Virus record (IMG/VR): IMGVR_UViG_3300045988_076131
Span: 10,380-74,379 of that record
Source of the DNA: a virus
Strand: one strand, 5' to 3'
Length of the DNA stretch: 64,000 bases
The notes under the pieces are model-generated. The model made no database searches, was not told where the DNA came from, and was given only the letters and a program-made list of their open reading frames with translations. Of this stretch, positions 39,976 through 54,278 are shown one piece after another. The translations under genes and the position numbers were made by a program. Position 1 is the first letter of the stretch, and every line of letters starts with the position of its first letter.

Positions 39976-40001
39976 TATAATATTAACTATAAGCAATAAA
40001 T

Positions 40002-40598
40002 ATGAGAAATAGAATTATTACAGCGATTATGGTAACATTTGCCTTTTTTGCGCTATCATGCACACAGAAACAACAGAAAGTAACCACCCATAAACCGACA
40101 CCATCCACAAAGCAGGTTTTTCTAAACAAAACAAAGGATGCGCTTAAAAATTTTGTAAAAGACAAAGCAAACAATCCCGATGCTATGAAGATTAGCGGGA
40201 TGAAAGTGGCGTTTCTTTGTGATAGCGCTTGTGCTTTAAACTTTCGTTTCGTTGCAGAAAACAAACTCGGAGGGCATGTTAACGGAAAGGCTCAATTTAT
40301 ACTATTAGAATATCAAGACGAATACTATTGGTCGTGGCAAGACGACAAAGACGATTCACCTCACTGTATTGGAGACTGGCTGGGGAATTTTGGCGCATTT
40401 TTTGCGGCAACTTTGCATTTGGAATTTAAAGACACTGACGCTTTTGTAAAATCTAAATGCCCCAAAGATAGTAGTGACTGTGCAAGCATCACCATGGAAG
40501 ATGAGTATGTACAAGCATATTGTATAACAAAGAAGTTTGGCGAAAAGGCAGATATGACACCTTCTACTTCGTGTGATCATACAATTCCAGTACAATAG
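40002..40598 (+). CDS. lipoprotein, paralog of 61544..62095
   Basis: Signal peptide with lipobox FFALSC. NPDAMKISGMKVAFLCDSACALNFRFVAENKLGGHV aligns with NPEDFKVSNLKVVWATDSLCVINFRAIGENGFGGHV. Confidence 0.7.
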   Translation: MRNRIITAIMVTFAFFALSCTQKQQKVTTHKPTPSTKQVFLNKTKDALKNFVKDKANNPDAMKISGMKVAFLCDSACALNFRFVAENKLGGHVNGKAQFILLEYQDEYYWSWQDDKDDSPHCIGDWLGNFGAFFAATLHLEFKDTDAFVKSKCPKDSSDCASITMEDEYVQAYCITKKFGEKADMTPSTSCDHTIPVQ

Positions 40599-40972
40599 CC
40601 ATACCATTAGCCGCCACGCCTTTGTGCATGGTGGCTAATATTGTTCTTGTCTTATCGTTGGGGGGGTAATATTCCCCCAAATCTTATTTATATCACTATC
40701 AGTTCTCATAAAACTCAATTATATACGTTACACTATTATTCCCTCCTCCCTTATAGAGGGTGGCGCACATGCAAACGGCTTTGCTTTGCCCCCCTAATCT
40801 GTTTGGATATATTTTCCACTTGGTGTGTTGCTGTCATAATTCGTAGATTGTTAAAACGTGCGGTAAACCATAGGAGTTGGTTCTGTGTGCTATCTCTGTC
40901 GTAAGACAGTTGTATTTACCCCCCCCCTCACTACTGATACAGGCTTTTTGTAGCCTTGGATAATCAGAATGT

Positions 40973-41128
40973 TCATATCTCTTTCAATTCTAAAACAAAT
41001 GGACGTAAATCAAAACCTCCCAAGCCGTGAGCGTAAAATGCAGTCAGCGTGCCTGTTTTTGCTCTGGGGGGGGTATGAATAACTATTGACTTATACAAAG
41101 TCGGATAAAAAACTATTCTATTTTCCAT
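40973..41128 (-). CDS. mini-protein, array unit F2 (51 aa, intact; in-frame C8 tract read as Pro-Pro)
   Basis: MENRIVFYPTLYKSIVIHTPPRAKTGTLTAFYAHGLGGFDLRPFVLELKEI, with an ATGA overlap with unit G. Confidence 0.35.
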   Translation of the reverse strand: MENRIVFYPTLYKSIVIHTPPRAKTGTLTAFYAHGLGGFDLRPFVLELKEI

Positions 41129-41268
41129 AAAGCTCTAATATTGCCGGTCTGATATTATAGTTCGGATCTATGCCTTTATAGTCGTTTGCCTTTATCGGCT
41201 GGCATTTACCCCCCCCCATATATAGACCTTGGCTTAAAATGGTCAAGTATATACTTCCTCATACACCT

Positions 41269-41442
41269 CTAACAAATAATTGATTTGCCCCCCCGCATAA
41301 CAGAACTCGTTTTGAAATCGGGGCGGCACGAAAAAGCCATAAGATTGTGCCTTGTGCCGTATTTTCGTTCACCGCAAGCGTATTGCCCCCACACCTTTCT
41401 TCCAAGCTCAGTGCGGTACTGATTAAGTATTTTACTTCTCAT
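41269..41442 (-). CDS. mini-protein, array unit E (57 aa as assembled; contains G5 and G7 tracts)
   Basis: MRSKILNQYRTELGRKVWGQYACGERKYG...SSVMRGGKSIIC. One extra G gives ...RGGQINYLLEVYEEVYT. Confidence 0.3.
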   Translation of the reverse strand: MRSKILNQYRTELGRKVWGQYACGERKYGTRHNLMAFSCRPDFKTSSVMRGGKSIIC

Positions 41443-41562
41443 ACAGTTCTAAGATTTTCATCACACTTCTATCATAACTACCGGTTAAAAGGCAAATACC
41501 CCCCGAATATGGAGTAAAACCGATGTTGTTGATGTGCGGTGTTCCCCCATTCGGAATTTCCG

Positions 41563-41727
41563 TTAAGTTGACTGATTTTCTTCATACATTTCAAATAATA
41601 AATTATCTTTCGCCGCAGAGGTGAGAGAGGATGATTTTTGTCCTCTAAGTTCAATTCTCTGTTCGTGTGGTGAATTGTACCAATCATCAATAGAACGTCC
41701 TCTAACGGCAATCACATTACTTCTCAT
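41563..41727 (-). CDS. mini-protein, array unit C (54 aa, intact)
   Basis: MRSNVIAVRGRSIDDWYNSPHEQRIELRGQKSSSLTSAAKDNLLFEMYEENQST. Overlaps the start of unit D. Confidence 0.35.
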   Translation of the reverse strand: MRSNVIAVRGRSIDDWYNSPHEQRIELRGQKSSSLTSAAKDNLLFEMYEENQST

Positions 41728-41848
41728 ACGTTTCTAAAACACAATCGCATTGCGAGTTATTGCCTGCCCCATGTGCGCCAACACATAAAGCCGAGCCTTT
41801 GTGCGACTCAACAATATCTCCCTTGCGACTAATCTTTATCTTTCTCAT
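41717..41848 (-). CDS. mini-protein, array unit B (43 aa, intact)
   Basis: MRKIKISRKGDIVESHKGSALCVGAHGAGNNSQCDCVLETYEK. Its stop lies inside the start region of unit C. Confidence 0.35.
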   Translation of the reverse strand: MRKIKISRKGDIVESHKGSALCVGAHGAGNNSQCDCVLETYEK

Positions 41849-42066
41849 ACACTACAAACACATACCCCCCCCGATGTGCGGTCTGCAAGCATTGGTGTTT
41901 GACGGACTTATACCTTGCCTTGTTACAGCAACTCCGTGTAATCTATTTTTCATAAATCTCAACAATTCCTGTATGCTGCCTATGTCCTGGAACGTACCAC
42001 CAACCTATGTATCTTGCGTTTAACGCAGTGGATTTGGTGGTGGGGGGGGTGATACCACTCCCCATA

Positions 42067-43299
42067 TTAAACGCTCTTGTCGTTCTCATTATACAAGCCT
42101 TCAAGTCTTTGTTTTTCTAAACCAAAGCTAAACTCCGCCAATTCACGCTTTTCTTCACCTGTAAGCGCATTAAACTCGTCAGAGGTACAAATATACTCAA
42201 ACAACTCTTTAACGCTTACCTGTGGCTCTAAAAGATAGTCTTTGAGTTTTCTTTTATCTGTCCTTGCCATTAACTGCGCTACCGTTTCGTCTTTCAGGTA
42301 GTATTTCTCACCTGCCTCTTCTTGGAGAATATCCTTAATAACGATACCTCGGTCTTCCGGCTGCGGAATATCCACTTCAAGCGGAGGCCATGCAAACGGG
42401 TCGCTTTCATCATAAAACAAGCCTTCTCCTGCGACTGGCTTTGTCTTGATATTAGTCCAATAGATACGTCGTCTGTTCTGTGCCGATACAAGCGCAGAGT
42501 TAATATGAATACCACGCACACCGATAGCGTGAGAAAGACATCTTTCCCACTTTTCAAGCATCTTGACGTTTTCAAGAAAGAAATAAATATCGGGATTGTA
42601 CTTACGCAGCTCCGTAAGTATTCGCATATATTCCCAAAAGAGATAGGACTGACCTTCAAACTGAAAGCCTTGTGACTTTAATTCGAGATAGCGTTCGAGG
42701 GTGTAAATTTCCTCGCCACTCTTTGTACTCATGCCTTTCATCTTTCCGCTAAAAGAAAACGATTGGCACGGAGAACCTCCGATTAAGATGTCGGGCACCC
42801 CGTATTTTTCAACTATCTCGTCTATATTCAAATCCGTAACGCTACCCAACTGGATAGTATTCGGAAAGTTGTGCATCGTGTTCGCAATAGCGTGCTTATC
42901 AATCTCCGATGCAAGATAAGTCGTTATGTTAGCACCGATGCCGCGTAACGAAACTTGTCCCCCTGAAATTCCGTCAAACAAAGACAAGACCTTGAGGTTG
43001 TTCAACTTGATTTTAGGAATGAAACTGAAAATATGCTTGATAGTTTCAATGTTCCAGCCGTTGCCAAGCCCTTTGTACTGCTGCGTTTCGCTTGTAACAA
43101 ACTCGTAATCGTGCGGCATAGTCTGCAACTCGGCACACTCTTGCGGTGTCAGTCGTCTGATAGCTGCCACATATTTTACTCCATTTGCCTCAAACTCTAC
43201 GCCCTGCTTATTATCGGGCATGCGCTCCTGAAATTCCTTCAGTTGCTTTTCTTTTACCTTGCGGTAAACATCCCTTGCGATTACTTCTTTATTCTCCAT
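42067..43299 (-). CDS. DNA (cytosine-5) methyltransferase with circularly permuted motif order
   Basis: Motifs IX/X (RRLTPQECAELQTMPHDYEF ... GLGNGW) lie at the N-terminus. They precede I (LFDGISGG), IV (GGSPCQSFS), VI (LENV) and VIII (SAQNRRRIYW). Confidence 0.85.
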   Translation of the reverse strand: MENKEVIARDVYRKVKEKQLKEFQERMPDNKQGVEFEANGVKYVAAIRRLTPQECAELQTMPHDYEFVTSETQQYKGLGNGWNIETIKHIFSFIPKIKLNNLKVLSLFDGISGGQVSLRGIGANITTYLASEIDKHAIANTMHNFPNTIQLGSVTDLNIDEIVEKYGVPDILIGGSPCQSFSFSGKMKGMSTKSGEEIYTLERYLELKSQGFQFEGQSYLFWEYMRILTELRKYNPDIYFFLENVKMLEKWERCLSHAIGVRGIHINSALVSAQNRRRIYWTNIKTKPVAGEGLFYDESDPFAWPPLEVDIPQPEDRGIVIKDILQEEAGEKYYLKDETVAQLMARTDKRKLKDYLLEPQVSVKELFEYICTSDEFNALTGEEKRELAEFSFGLEKQRLEGLYNENDKSV

Positions 43300-43473
43300 G
43301 TATCTCCAAAATTAAATTATCTTGTGTAGAAGTACTTATTGTTCCGCATCTTTTGTCGGGTCGGCATGAGTACGAGCGCATGTTGGAGCGGTTGCACCAC
43401 TCGCTCCTCGTACCACTATCGTACATTTTTCGGTATGCTCAGCCCAACTCGTTGCGGTATTTGTTCAGTATGA

Positions 43474-43989
43474 CTATTTGCGCCATTGGCTCGCCTTTAT
43501 GTCCTTCCTTTTTACTTTAAGCGACTTAGCACACTTCGTAACAGCCCGTTCGTATTCCCCGTAAACGAACAACTCTATCGAACCACCATTACTACCGAAT
43601 ATCAGACTGTCACCATCTCCACAAACATAAACCCTTCCGAAAAAGTTGGGTGGAACAATGACACTCGCACGACCTCCGGCAATAACCGTAAGGGTACTCC
43701 TAAGCTCTATTTTGCCATGAGGTTCTACATAAAGCTCACTTGTGTACCCGTCTTTCTTGCGCTGATACTTGCCGTTGATGAAGTCCGCAAACTCATTCAG
43801 TAGAAACTCCTGCGAACACCCCCAACCGAAAGTTATTGCATCTGCAAGAAACTCAACGCCGTTGGAGTCTAACACCAAGTCCATAAGCTCTTTCTTTGAG
43901 GCGCAGCTATCCCACTTTTTCTTGTATTCTCCGCACAATCCCAACATAAGGGCATTGCGTTTCATGTTTAACAGCTCATTATTGCTCAT
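43474..43989 (-). CDS. hypothetical protein
   Basis: Internal ATG at 43989 (MSNNELLNMK...). Track ORF 43474..44025. Confidence 0.55.
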   Translation of the reverse strand: MSNNELLNMKRNALMLGLCGEYKKKWDSCASKKELMDLVLDSNGVEFLADAITFGWGCSQEFLLNEFADFINGKYQRKKDGYTSELYVEPHGKIELRSTLTVIAGGRASVIVPPNFFGRVYVCGDGDSLIFGSNGGSIELFVYGEYERAVTKCAKSLKVKRKDIKASQWRK

Positions 43990-52658: not shown

Positions 52659-53041
52659 CAGATTTCGTTTTGAATACAAAGTAAGGACATACAAACAAGC
52701 ATTGCAAGCTTTTGAACTGCAAACCCTATTTTTTAACATTTTATGTTAATTTATTTAACTATTGTACAGGTTGCAATAATTACAACCATAAGTTCAGGAG
52801 AAACAAGATATAAACATACACAGGCGAGTAATAAAGACAAAAAGGCTGTTTATTTGTGTTCTAAGCGTGTTTTAACTGAAAGACTAATAACTACACCAAA
52901 AGGAAATGAAAGTGCGGCAGAACGCAAATAAATAGGCAAATAAACGGCTTTTGAAGTATGGTGGAAATAATAATGAAAATAACAAAAAGTGAAGCACTGC
53001 TGCGTGTGACACCTCCAAAAATAAAAAAAATAAAAAATTAA

Positions 53042-53090
53042 GGGAAAGGGTGGGTGCGGTGGGTGCGGTGGGTGCCTGGGGGGGTGGGGG
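53042..53090 (+). repeat. G-rich block: three tandem ggtgggtgc units plus G7 and G5 runs (G-quadruplex-capable)
   Basis: Seven runs of G3 or longer within 49 nt. The 9-bp unit sits at 53049, 53058 and 53067. Confidence 0.8.
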
Positions 53091-53213
53091 TTTAACCCCT
53101 GCGGATGGCGAAGGCTCAAAAAGCAAAGAGTATAAAGCACGTAACACGCTGATACATAACTACTTACAGGCTCTATAAATACTATTTTTTACATACAAGA
53201 CGGACGTATTACA

Positions 53214-53320
53214 CGAAAAAGGCGAAAAAGGCGAAAAAGGTATTATATTTATATATACTATTAGATATATAGATATAATATATATAAATATATAATATAT
53301 AGCTAATAATATATATATAC
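53214..53320. repeat. three tandem cgaaaaagg units followed by an 80-bp almost pure A/T (TA-rich) block
   Basis: Units lie at 53214-53240. 53241-53320 contains only a handful of G/C. Confidence 0.75.
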
Positions 53321-53348
53321 GCACGCGCGAGGAGCTGCACCTACACCA

Positions 53349-53735
53349 CTACGCCACGCCGAACTTTTTCGCCTCGTCGTGCCTGCCTGCCTTCCACTCC
53401 TGCTCCTGCCTTCTCTCTTCCCCCCTATATCCCCCCCCCACGGTGCGCAGCCTCGCCGCCGTTGTGCGCTCTGGATGCAGCGCCGTGCACCACTCGCCGC
53501 CTCGCTTTCCGTCGATCATTAGGCACGCCCGCCGCCCTTCCGTGCTGCCATCTGTAAAATGTTCTTTCAGGCGCGCGAGGCGTTCGGCTATTTTGCGCCG
53601 TTCTGCCGCTTTCTTTCGTGCCGGCTTATAGCTTACACGCCGCCGTATCTGCACGCCGTTACACGCAAAGAAAACAGGCCTATTTGCGAAGTTGTGCGCC
53701 GTGCCTATCTTCCTCCGTGCCAACGTTTTATACAC
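53349..53735 (-). CDS. doubtful ORF in a GC-rich islet (basic protein; GTG start; contains G9 and G6 tracts)
   Basis: 128 codons. Composition is visibly more GC-rich than the flanks, and no promoter was recognised. Confidence 0.25.
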   Translation of the reverse strand: MYKTLARRKIGTAHNFANRPVFFACNGVQIRRRVSYKPARKKAAERRKIAERLARLKEHFTDGSTEGRRACLMIDGKRGGEWCTALHPERTTAARLRTVGGGYRGEERRQEQEWKAGRHDEAKKFGVA

Positions 53736-53779
53736 TCAAAAAAAAGTTTCACTTTTTGAAAAAAAAACTTACAAAAAAA

Positions 53780-53811
53780 CTTGCACGTTTCAAAAAAACA
53801 TGCTACCTTTG
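53780..53811 (+). promoter_or_regulatory. Bacteroidetes-type promoter P1 facing the accessory operon
   Basis: CTTG (53780-53783), a 20-nt spacer, then TACCTTTG (53804-53811). Confidence 0.55.
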
Positions 53812-53879
53812 CACTCGCAAGATGGGAACAAAAAAACATCTTACTCGTTCTTTGAACTTATTGTATATTTATATATAGG

Positions 53880-53961
53880 TAAAATAGAAAAAGCCCGCAA
53901 CTGGCTGCAACCAGTTGCGGGCGGCGTGAAGGCAAAACGCTTCACCTGCTTAAATCCTCAA
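53880..53961 (-). ncRNA. candidate ~75-80 nt antisense sRNA (two hairpins plus U-tail)
   Basis: Its own promoter lies at 53968-53999. It has a 6-bp hairpin (53926-53945), a perfect 12-bp hairpin (53893-53922), then UUUUUCUAUUUU. Confidence 0.45.
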
Positions 53962-53967
53962 GCGGTG

Positions 53968-53999
53968 CAAATTTAGCTATTTTATTCGGTCCCTGCAAA
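53968..53999 (-). promoter_or_regulatory. Bacteroidetes-type promoter of the sRNA candidate
   Basis: Minus strand reads TTTG (plus-strand CAAA at 53996-53999), a 20-nt spacer, then TAAATTTG (53968-53975). Confidence 0.55.
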
Positions 54000-54278
54000 T
54001 TTGGCGGCGGTTTTCTTCGAATAAAATTATTTTTCCAACGGTATAAATATTTGATATTATAGCGTTCTTTGGCTTGTTTACATACAAAAAAATACTTCTG
54101 TATTAACATTATTAAACGTGTTATTACAGCCTGTCGGAGATGTGTCGCGCTGTGCGAGCGTGTAAAAGATAGTAGCTCAACGGGGCAAAATGCACTTAAT
54201 TCGCACATCAAAACACCTGCCTCCCGTGGCGGTTGAAGTCCGCCGCAGGCACGATAATAACAACAAATATTTAACAAT

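Follow-up and report, generated by a model that had tools for sequence, protein, structure and literature searches.

A predicted disassembled C5-cytosine methyltransferase of a phage, with a putatively phase-variable array of target-recognition mini-genes

In the stretch of viral DNA analyzed here (64 kb, hereafter the window), an apparent gap of 1.4 kb separates a minus-strand C5-cytosine methyltransferase gene from a convergent lipoprotein gene, and gene callers place no gene within it. What this gap encodes, and how its content relates to the neighboring methyltransferase, is the question that the locus raises. The answer developed below is that the locus is a candidate disassembled multispecific C5-cytosine methyltransferase of a phage, whose host is probably Prevotella.

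An earlier note on this DNA had read the gap as a tandem array of start/stop-overlapping mini-ORFs belonging to one paralogous family and had listed ten of them; that reading holds, and all ten are present on the minus strand where it had placed them. They are "entry" ORFs, each opening at an ATG within a junction, but the list left out two units, namely, U0, which overlaps the methyltransferase stop, and U-1, which lies upstream of the methyltransferase gene. Nor does the array end at 40635: because the broken units have true 3' halves, which had been omitted, the end lies at 40564. The array is thus bigger than described, with eleven overlapping downstream units (40564-42089) and a twelfth upstream, and its modules are 41 to 67 residues long (Table 1).

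Table 1. Mini-genes and methyltransferase core of the locus, in order along the minus strand
Feature	Coordinates	Strand	Length (aa)	State in window	Details
U-1, upstream TRD mini-gene	43289..43486	minus			E-like type; MAQIVILNKYRNELG-stop-AYRK...DNLILEIHGE-stop
C5-cytosine methyltransferase catalytic core	42067..43299	minus	410		PF00145 1e-38; TIGR00675 dcm 2e-38
U0	41943..42089	minus	48	ON	C8 run 42042-42049
A	41829..41953	minus		OFF	G8 run 41865-41872; in frame if G9 or G6
B	41717..41848	minus	43	ON	without homopolymer; G2 paralog
C	41563..41727	minus	54	ON	without homopolymer
D	41432..41585	minus		OFF	G6 run 41499-41504; in frame if G5 or G8
E	41243..41442	minus		OFF	G7 run 41288-41294; in frame if G8 or G5; U-1 paralog
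F	41118..41262	minus		OFF	G9 run 41209-41217; in frame if G8
F2	40973..41128	minus	51	ON	C8 run 41066-41073
G	40834..40976	minus		OFF	G9 run 40919-40927
G2	40699..40837	minus		OFF	G6 run 40789-40794; in frame if G5 or G8
H	40564..40709	minus		OFF	C7 run 40660-40666; in frame if C8

Each mini-gene has its ATG inside the conserved codons for L-E-x-Y-E-K with which the preceding ORF ends, and each ORF overlaps the next by 4 to 23 nt; at the end of the array, unit H extends with its 3' end 35 nt into the convergent lipoprotein gene. A weight-matrix scan of the 64-kb window bears out the junction as real and specific, with the form [LIV]-[LIV]-E-x-Y-E-K-stop: sites scoring at least 15 are exclusively array sites, the top site outside the array scores 14.8, and two array junctions are weaker (12.6 and below 9). 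Across 79 related viral loci, arrays of junction matches scoring at least 14 occur only beside close methyltransferase homologs (L001-L017), always on the methyltransferase strand; of the remaining 62 loci, 9 contain isolated matches, one or two apiece. The C-terminal peptides that the earlier note had obtained by frame correction, as well as the paralogy that it proposed for B and G2 (GAGNNS/GGGNNS), are likewise correct. Programmed ribosomal frameshifting at the junctions, as a route to fusions, was set aside because UAU GAG AAG UAA contains no recognizable slippery site and the units differ in the shift that leads into the following frame, which is mostly +1 but +2 for F2 to G and G to G2.

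The conserved junction of ~20 nt and its regular spacing of 104 to 180 nt could also be read as a DNA- or RNA-level element, either an iteron or binding-site array, which the earlier note had itself named as the alternative to its claim, or a set of structured RNAs. However, the junction is conserved at the amino acid level with synonymous variation, Rfam finds no match in 40300-43600, and TRF finds no tandem repeat at the DNA level in 40000-42600; a recent DNA repeat is also ruled out, since the units are diverged paralogs. Between the window array and six relatives, substitutions fall at codon positions 1, 2, and 3 in the ratio 228/165/529 (p = 3e-53), and dN/dS is 0.08 to 0.32 in the proposed frames versus 0.8 to 2.7 in shifted frames. 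Because the substitutions are codon-periodic, we reject the DNA- or RNA-level reading as exceedingly improbable, and the comparison shows the modules to be protein-coding units under purifying selection in the proposed frames. A sigma-70 promoter scan of the locus gave only chance-level scores with a tool that does not cover Bacteroidota promoters.

The adjacent methyltransferase ORF itself opens at one junction and closes at another. Its 410-aa product has the conserved motifs of the PF00145 family, which in the translation run in the order IX/X (RRLTPQECAELQ, GNGWNIETIKHIF), I (LFDGISGG), IV (SPCQSFS), VI (ENV), and VIII (QNRRR). The core is hence circularly permuted, with motifs IX-X placed before I-VIII, which is the type H (M.BssHII-like) order. 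Its PDB matches in phmmer searches are DNMT3A/B, M.HhaI, and plant DRM, the last of these being colinear in the same permuted order over query residues 50 to 207. After motif VIII and a ...YYLKDE segment, the core runs into ~75 predicted-helical residues, a C-terminal extension that ends in LEGLYNEN; it is exactly at the point following ...YYLKDE that the target-recognition domains (TRDs) of canonical relatives begin. We observed that the core has additional helices at both its N and C termini. The TRD signatures of canonical relatives were sought in the 410-aa core and none was found there, and the N-terminal TRD that type H enzymes have in the same polypeptide is also absent from the core in the window. 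C5-methyltransferases need a TRD to bind and flip their target, as the structures of M.HhaI and M.HaeIII illustrate.

Sequence comparisons of the mini-genes point to the whereabouts of the missing domain. When joined across their frame breaks, the units match multi-TRD relatives of canonical order in the variable region that separates motif VIII from motif IX (residues 230 to 441), with E-values of 5e-6 for U-1, 3e-3 for C, 1e-2 for G, and 1e-7 for H, whose top TRD match pairs NITPPNDKTRTILATMHKGVAANGMAIV with NIRSIDDKAHTLLATSHKGAMANGMALV. Unit C (AVRGR...QRIELRGQKSSSLTSAAKDNLL) displays the classic TRD signature of this enzyme subfamily, and the 3' half of unit G (GGGKYNCLTTE...) matches RGDGKTNCLTT of canonical TRDs. 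A profile of 22 stand-alone U-1-type proteins aligned in hhalign with the first TRD module of canonical enzymes (82% probability, E = 1e-5), and a search with the U-1-type profile found 103 proteins among 1.84 billion representatives. All ten of the long proteins tested from this search are PF00145 enzymes, matched either within the variable region or immediately N terminal to motifs IX/X, and the module stands alone, at 63 to 84 aa, in 22 clusters. Altogether, the locus has twelve units homologous to TRDs, which fall into five or more sequence types, and each mini-gene encodes one homolog of a TRD of multispecific phage C5-methyltransferases.

Related phages carry the same modules in several arrangements. 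The U-1 type is fused in frame to the N terminus of the core in P0031/P0032, and in-frame N-terminal TRD-core fusions are found among the homologs P0031, P0047, P0060, P0085, P0103, and P0110; in the fused homologs the order is TRD-IX-X-I...VIII, the same as in type H. Elsewhere the module is fused to a neighboring unit (L081, L006) or embedded in one polypeptide (L018-L060), and in this last group one to four modules have been gained or lost between enzymes that are 85 to 98% identical. At the other extreme, L003 has only downstream stand-alone units, four of five of them ON, and the near-identical L014 has the same junction layout.

Several searches returned little. Pfam, PHROGs, and NCBIfam assign no family to individual units; the concatenated frame-joined units found nothing at E <= 0.01 among 5.8 billion proteins, a null that says little about homology given such short domains and so huge a database, although it does indicate that the downstream products were not found in that collection as called proteins. 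Megablast of the locus against cultured phages gave no match, a protein search of the same phages recovered only canonical-order enzymes of Bacteroides and Phocaeicola phages (49 to 62% identity), and a metagenome scan with a 26-mer of unit B retrieved one further contig only. AlphaFold2 modeled the natural fusion P0031 (61 homologs) with a confident core and a module at pLDDT below 50; placing 21 stand-alone modules in the alignment at the N terminus gave a worse second model (mean pLDDT, 62), and as the module stayed below 50 in both runs we offer no docking model. With the first model, Foldseek recovered only the DNMT3-like catalytic domain.

The earlier note had viewed the array as an independent, moron-like micro-protein system. 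That view does not survive the observations that the units are TRD homologs and that the adjacent methyltransferase ORF shares their junctions; rather, the units probably belong functionally to this methyltransferase. They might instead have been derived from TRDs for some other role, for instance as antirestriction factors or DNA-binding decoys, or to inhibit or regulate the core or inhibit methyltransferases of the host, and both the purifying selection on units whose partner is a candidate and the extra terminal helices of the core would be compatible with this. Against it, the core lacks the TRD of its own that such an enzyme requires, and naturally occurring in-frame fusions have the module at the position that the TRD occupies in permuted enzymes of the M.BssHII type (PMC5944983). 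We regard such another role as quite unlikely.

The frame breaks within the units deserve separate consideration. The earlier note had corrected for them, and its corrected frames are right; the breaks are not noise, however, as each falls at a G or C homopolymer. The "GGGK" that it listed as shared by several units mostly reflects hypervariable poly-G runs being translated. Of the 11 downstream modules, 9 have a run of 6 to 9 G or C residues inside the coding sequence, and its length sets whether the 5' and 3' halves share a frame: all seven broken units break exactly at such a run, one base from in-frame. In the window, four of the eleven downstream units are ON (U0, B, C, and F2) and seven are OFF (A, D, E, F, G, G2, and H). 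The runs are concentrated in the array, whose 2.4% of the sequence contains 9 of the 13 G/C runs of at least 6 nt in the window (p = 2e-12). Arrays of L001, L002, L008, L015, L080, and L081 have seven to eight runs each versus zero to two elsewhere in these loci, and none occurs in 43 canonical multi-TRD genes (54 kb in total).

Comparison of orthologous cassettes that are 96 to 99% identical reveals run lengths of 5 to 9 nt with ON/OFF states to match, these lengths being read from consensus metagenome assemblies in which homopolymer calls can be wrong. The U0 run, in a unit whose ATG sits in the C-terminal junction of the methyltransferase, is C8, C8, C7, C9, C9, or interrupted in relatives, with matching states. 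Unit A is ON at G6 (L001, L015) and OFF at G7 (L080); unit E is ON at G8 (L002) and at G5 (L015); unit F2 is ON at C8 (the window, L001) and OFF at C7 (L002, L015, L008) or C9 (L080); and the unit D run is G6, G7, or G9. The ON state was seen in 14 of 46 cases of units with a run and in 10 of 11 without one; unit B is ON in all six close relatives, and the 30% ON among run-bearing units is about what random lengths would give. Indels between relatives are mostly changes in run length. Over 3,701 nt, the single difference between the window and independent assemblies is the unit F run (9 versus 8, the latter its ON length), the methyltransferase and lipoprotein genes being identical, and each allele occurs twice among four otherwise identical sequences. 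The locus thereby displays two features of an SSR phase-variable locus, i.e., a frame-shifting repeat within an ORF and length polymorphism between near-identical genomes. Taken at face value, the runs are length-variable homopolymers predicted to switch the units ON and OFF.

Might the differences in run length be sequencing or assembly errors, such that real TRD mini-genes are constitutively in frame and there is no phase variation? All the sequences are consensus metagenome assemblies, G/C homopolymers of 8 to 9 nt are error-prone, and the single-base distance of every broken unit from its frame would fit such errors. Yet the deviations go in both directions, spanning 5 to 9 nt for one cassette, and both unit F alleles recur among the four sequences. 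The rest of the window is ~85% ORFs of at least 100 aa, and its eight A/T runs of at least 8 nt show no sign of a frameshift, whereas the concentration of G/C runs in the arrays and their absence from canonical fused enzymes are a signature of selected mutability. We therefore assign a low probability, of about one in ten in rough terms, to artifactual run lengths.

Some units are damaged in other ways. In the window, U-1 carries an inactivating in-frame TGA at 43439-43441; the TAA of the unit (43289-43291), in a frame that differs from that of the core, overlaps the methyltransferase ATG at 43299 inside the junction motif, and an intact 65-aa U-1 ORF is found in L002, L015, L008, L004, L013, and L081. 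Unit C has lost its ATG in L002, and G2 is OFF in all seven close relatives parsed; L013 and L004 have an intact, run-free G2 homolog. Because of these three cases, some decay appears to be tolerated. One could go further and regard the whole array as the nonfunctional wreck of a once-fused multispecific methyltransferase gene, pointing to the broken frames of 7 of the 11 downstream units in the window, the U-1 nonsense codon, and the near-random ON frequency. This is hard to reconcile with the low in-frame dN/dS and with the codon-periodic substitutions in both halves of window-OFF units, each in its own frame, at positions 1/2/3 (48/63/148 for the 5' halves alone and 73/34/123 for the 3' halves alone). 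Moreover, breaks occur almost only at runs, and the architecture of the array is kept down to ~63% core identity. In L013, which has a single G6 run in its whole array, all eight downstream units are open: seven are intact, overlapping, and terminated by the junction motif, and the eighth has a different ending. Decay into remnants is accordingly very unlikely.

A further possibility is that only the upstream or fused unit is used and that the downstream units are unexpressed donors recombining at the junctions, a silent-cassette reservoir in the manner of pilS/pilE or vls. Cassette content indeed differs strongly between close relatives, the module type at the upstream/fused position differs between phages, the junctions are direct repeats, and L091 has a hybrid E/G2 cassette joined at G-run microhomology. 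Nevertheless, every downstream unit retains a junction ATG and a stop of its own, together with an overlap resembling that of coupled translation; the run-free downstream units are nearly always ON; L003 has no upstream site at all; and the homology offered by a junction amounts to only ~20 nt. Furthermore, the upstream site is always of the U-1 type throughout the clade of the window, and thus no swapping is seen. On balance, we consider a silent reservoir unlikely.

We therefore favor, as the somewhat more probable reading, a multispecific methyltransferase that has been disassembled into a core and stand-alone specificity subunits, the latter being coupled in translation and each subject to its own phase variation. 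Under this proposal, one transcript beginning upstream of the methyltransferase would carry all modules, which would be translated as separate small proteins by termination-reinitiation coupling. Each ON module might then bind the core noncovalently, in trans, supply the missing half of the DNA-binding cleft, and confer one sequence specificity on the holoenzyme, in a role that may be likened to that of HsdS in type I systems or of the multiple TRDs in enzymes of the SPR/phi3T kind. At the runs, slipped-strand mispairing would switch individual specificities ON and OFF at high frequency, such that a phage population could hold many combinations of m5C patterns and hedge between being protected from the restriction enzymes of its hosts and escaping restriction that depends on methylation (type IV). 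A more specific formulation, to which we give even chances, is that a TRD-less core uses a type I-like logic with a bank of about twelve interchangeable specificity peptides of 41 to 67 aa; as about nine of these have their own homopolymer switches, one genotype could yield hundreds of m5C patterns (2^9 or more).

The statement of the earlier note that no phage system of this kind had been described stands, in that we found no such description in the literature or in family libraries. Reportedly, Sorensen et al. (2021, in Cell Reports) tied poly-G tracts of Campylobacter phages to phenotypic diversity within a phage population, but those tracts lie in receptor-binding or tail genes rather than in DNA modification specificity modules and form no tandem array. 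Among the closest known systems are M.SPRI, M.Phi3TI, M.Rho11sI, and M.H2I of temperate Bacillus phages, in which, as in the window, one catalytic scaffold is associated with several different short, tandem, modular TRDs; such multispecific phage enzymes presumably serve to guard against many restriction systems simultaneously (PMC12707154). There, however, the TRDs are constitutively present in one polypeptide between motifs VIII and IX, as they also are in L018-L060, whereas the TRDs of the window are separate ORFs beside a permuted, TRD-less core, most of them with an ON/OFF homopolymer. With M.BssHII, M.Alw26I, M2.Eco31I, M.Esp3I, and M2.BsaI (type H), the core shares the placement of motifs IX-X before I-VIII (PMC5944983), but its TRD lies outside the polypeptide and comes in twelve alternatives, and it has the extra terminal helices. 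Assembly of C5-methyltransferases from separate polypeptides has precedents in M.AquI alpha/beta and in engineered M.HhaI, M.SssI, and M.MpeI pairs (PMC5944983). The break in the window differs from these M.AquI-type splits in falling between the TRD and motif IX, a position at which we found no characterized natural split, and in detaching a piece of only 41 to 67 aa with many alternatives for one core.

Among bacterial SSR phase-variable methyltransferases, in which homopolymer length in an ORF sets the frame and turns a specificity ON or OFF (PMC7383803, PMC4889913), the comparators are type III mod phasevarions and the type I hsdS/hsdM and type IIG genes with homopolymers of Neisseria, Haemophilus, Helicobacter, and Campylobacter. 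Most of these are N6-adenine enzymes, and each enzyme or specificity gene has a single switch, in contrast to a phage locus with about nine independent switches in separate specificity modules of one C5 enzyme. HsdS is also a separate specificity polypeptide for a catalytic subunit, encoded by an overlapping ORF that is translationally coupled to hsdM (PMC3510504), but it belongs to another enzyme class and fold, is large with two TRDs, and is not homologous to the units.

For annotation, the locus illustrates that real genes can lie densely arrayed within apparent gaps of 1 to 1.5 kb beside methyltransferase genes; gene callers miss them because they are short, overlapping, and frameshifted at homopolymers. 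Modules of 41 to 67 residues that re-target a common core would suit programmable m5C writers and would offer a natural data set for TRD-to-motif rules. If the proposal is true, this would be the first C5-methyltransferase to draw its specificity from separate, exchangeable mini-subunits and the first phage-encoded combinatorial phase variation of methylation specificity. Gut phage metagenomes would then hold a stepwise series leading from an all-in-one multispecific enzyme, through a permuted TRD-core fusion, to a split core with a TRD array, and the array would be a combinatorial epigenetic bet-hedging device of phages against both classical and methylation-dependent restriction.

The ten minus-strand mini-ORFs (A to H) downstream of the methyltransferase gene that the earlier note had read from sequence alone were all recovered exactly where it placed them, but its array was incomplete, as it missed a preceding unit (U0), the end of the last unit (H), and a twelfth unit (U-1) directly upstream of the methyltransferase (see the table). 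The ATG of each listed ORF sits within the final codons of the ORF before it, with overlaps of 4 to 23 nt and a junction-to-junction spacing of 104 to 180 nt. The junctions take the form [LIV]-[LIV]-E-x-Y-E-K-stop (n = 12, or 13 with one at the methyltransferase start). Since U0 starts within the methyltransferase's own C-terminal junction and the methyltransferase ATG lies within that of U-1, the methyltransferase ORF itself belongs to this overlapping chain. In the 64-kb window, junction weight matrix scores of at least 15 were confined to the array (top unrelated site, 14.8); across 79 related viral loci, the same matrix found arrays only beside close homologs of this methyltransferase, all on its strand, and one or two isolated matches occurred in 9 of 62 other viral loci without arrays. 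A synonymous TAT-to-TAC change in the junction tyrosine of unit B in one relative (L002, ~6629) removes the ATG of unit C, whose frame is still open, and illustrates the dual coding constraint on the junction. Gene callers behind the public collections annotate no genes in the array.

Features of the array and its surroundings, with homopolymer run lengths in the window and in orthologous cassettes
Feature	Coordinates	Strand	Run in window	In frame at	Run lengths in orthologous cassettes
U-1	43486..43289	minus			
Methyltransferase core	42067..43299	minus			
U0	42089..41943	minus	C8		8, 8, 7, 9, 9, or interrupted
A		minus	G8	G9 or G6	
D		minus	G6	G5 or G8	6, 7, 9
E		minus	G7	G8 or G5	7, 8, 5
F		minus	G9	G8	9, 7, 8
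F2		minus	C8		8, 8, 7, 7, 7, 9
G		minus	G9	G10 or G7	
G2	40699-40837	minus	G6	G5 or G8	6, 6, 6, 6, 9, 7, 7
H	3' end at 40564	minus	C7	C8	7, 8, 6, 6
Terminator-like hairpin	40658-40680	plus			
Second ORF-poor gap	52740-54278				

Of the eleven downstream units, seven are broken, in every case at a G or C run one base off the in-frame length, and U0 and F2 are intact with their runs. Such a region could be read as a DNA-level iteron array or as a set of pseudogenes. The codon periodicity that the earlier note proposed as a check was found: when six relatives of graded divergence are compared, the proposed frames show substitution counts of 228/165/529 at codon positions 1/2/3 (p = 3e-53), and dN/dS (Nei-Gojobori) is 0.08 to 0.32 in these frames versus 0.8 to 2.7 in both shifted frames. 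Within units that are OFF in the window (5' and 3' halves out of frame with each other), the 5' halves give 48/63/148 in the entry frame and the 3' halves 73/34/123 in the exit frame. Two related arrays, L004 and L013, are nearly free of long homopolymers (none and one G6, respectively), and simple, uninterrupted ORFs make up most of their units. Of the eight downstream units in L013, seven are intact, overlap, span 45 to 66 codons, and close with the junction motif; the eighth is open with a different ending. On the basis of the periodicity, the low in-frame dN/dS, and these intact units, we reject both the iteron and the pseudogene readings; the same evidence shows that, in its functional form, a "broken" unit has both halves joined in one frame.

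The runs are strongly concentrated: 9 of the 13 G/C runs of at least 6 nt in the window fall in the 1.55-kb array (binomial p = 2e-12). Arrays in L001, L002, L008, L015, L080, and L081 hold 7 to 8 runs each, and the rest of each locus (7.5 to 10 kb) holds 0 to 2; none of this length is present in 43 genes for canonical enzymes with multiple target-recognition domains (TRDs) (54 kb). Three of the four remaining runs in the window (G7 at 53078, C6 at 53420, and C9 at 53431) lie between divergent genes in a second, 1.5-kb gap with few ORFs, along with three A runs of at least 8 nt, 9-nt repeats (GGTGGGTGC and CGAAAAAGG, three copies each), and a TA-rich repeat of ~75 nt; this gap resembles a replication origin or regulatory region. 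Separately, 60 nt past the lipoprotein stop (40598) there is a terminator-like hairpin (TTGGGGGGGTAATATTCCCCCAA) with a T-rich tail behind it. It is built from the unit H homopolymer and a nearby G5 run, so the former may be both terminator stem and frame switch.

Orthologous cassettes that are 96 to 99% identical differ in run length, and reading frame tracks that length. Among run-bearing units, 14 of 46 are in frame, near the one-third share that random lengths would give; among run-free units, 10 of 11 are. Indels between relatives are mostly run-length changes, with seven such and zero others separating the window from L015. Three same-strain assemblies (ENA ERZ28575677, ENA ERZ19692903, and Logan SRR24653432), with methyltransferase and lipoprotein identical to the window's, differ from it over 3,701 nt solely in the unit F run, which is 8 nt (the ON length) in two and 9 nt in the third and the window, as read from assemblies, where homopolymer miscalls are possible. 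This pattern has the apparent signature of hypermutable contingency repeats. G2 is OFF in all seven close relatives parsed, and both its halves are codon periodic despite this state; run-free intact versions occur in L013, among the downstream ORFs, and in L004. U-1 is inactivated in the window by an in-frame TGA (43439-43441, after ...NELG), in L012 (~4870) by a CGA-to-TGA change in the same Arg codon, and elsewhere by a frameshift (L001), an internal deletion (L080), or a poly-G run (L006).

The 410-aa neighbor is a C5-cytosine methyltransferase (PF00145, 1e-38) with a circularly permuted motif order (IX, X, then I, IV, VI, VIII, then a helical tail) and no TRD. Individual units belong to no Pfam, PHROG, or NCBIfam family, and three independent lines, namely, natural fusions, canonical multi-TRD relatives, and profile searches, identify them as predicted TRDs. 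In longer homologs (P0031, P0047, P0060, P0085, P0103, and P0110), one unit is fused in frame to the core N terminus (e.g., MTKAVILNKYRNELG...DNLILEMFEK-MNKKDIAS...), and the resulting order, TRD-IX-X-I...VIII, is the topology of natural permuted enzymes such as M.BssHII and M.Alw26I (PMC5944983). More distant viral relatives (L018 to L060, ~50% identity) follow the canonical order I-VIII, TRDs, IX, X; their single polypeptide holds one to four tandem TRD modules, with whole modules present or absent among enzymes 85 to 98% identical. Multispecific methyltransferases from Bacillus temperate phages share this architecture (PMC12707154). Units H (NITPPNDKTRTILATMHKGVAANGMAIV against NIRSIDDKAHTLLATSHKGAMANGMALV, E = 1e-7), U-1 (E = 5e-6), C (E = 3e-3), and G (RGGGKYNCLTT against RGDGKTNCLTT, E = 1e-2) match these canonical relatives, always between motifs VIII and IX. 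The U-1-type module, used as a query, retrieved 22 protein clusters, all stand-alone (63 to 84 aa), whose profile aligned with the first TRD module of canonical enzymes (hhalign, E = 1e-5). Scanning 1.84 billion representatives with this profile yielded 103 proteins, about half of them small and stand-alone; all 10 long matches tested are PF00145 enzymes whose matching stretch lies either in the variable region or immediately ahead of motifs IX/X. In P0160, P0181, P0194, and other proteins of 110 to 250 aa, the TRD-unit profile matched two separate stretches each; these may be either gene fragments or proteins made of tandem TRDs alone, with no catalytic domain.

One module type is found free, fused to the core, fused to a neighboring module, or embedded in a canonical enzyme. 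At the upstream site, the free and fused states differ by one base. Units A and B share a single frame with no intervening stop in L081 (5334-5543) and L006 (6475-6666; ...IYLEYMRQIRISRRG...), a TRD-TRD fusion intermediate between the split and canonical multi-TRD states. L003 lacks the upstream module and has only downstream free modules, four of five in frame; the near-identical L014 has the same junction layout. In L009 and L010, the core carries a fused N-terminal module (453 aa) and the downstream array is short. Between TRD units, these loci also carry a 66-aa ORF (L009, 5951-6151) with two CxxC pairs (MKKNKKQFCPNCGKEM...YQCTSCGYQV), resembling a zinc ribbon. A hybrid cassette in L091 (OOAE01000612.1, ~2000-2150) joins the 5' half of unit E in frame to the 3' half of G2 (MRSKILNQYRTELGRKVW-RQSKAVCMCATLYKGAGNNS...). 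As the join falls at a G-run/CAA microhomology, the runs may double as joints at which recombination shuffles half-modules.

Homopolymer phase variation of bacterial methyltransferases is known, as are multispecific phage, permuted, and split C5-methyltransferases, each singly. Poly-G tracts are known from Campylobacter phage tail genes. What appears new is their combination, in a phage: TRDs as separate translationally coupled mini-genes, a split between TRD and motif IX, and an independent switch for each module. Full-text literature searches found no description of such an array.

Taken together, the comparisons show a permuted core that lacks a TRD and twelve TRD mini-genes under selection, linked to one another where stops and starts overlap, with length-variable runs deciding frame. 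We are highly confident that the units are selected TRD mini-genes with hypervariable runs, and lean modestly toward the full model of trans-acting, phase-variable specificity. In two AlphaFold runs on a natural fusion, module pLDDT was below 50 in both. The case for action in trans is comparative: the free, fused, and embedded module states, the one-base difference between free and fused forms, and L003 without an upstream module suggest it, and C5-methyltransferases tolerate fragment complementation and circular permutation (PMC5944983). A single transcript would be translated along the chain by termination-reinitiation, and each in-frame module would be released as a protein of 41 to 67 aa that binds the core and provides its DNA recognition. 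A locus with 81% identity in a Prevotella MAG makes Prevotella the probable host. Run slippage would toggle single specificities ON or OFF, generating many m5C patterns across the phage population. A plausible selective logic is bet-hedging, in which methylation of a motif would shield the phage from the cognate restriction enzyme but expose it to methylation-dependent nucleases.
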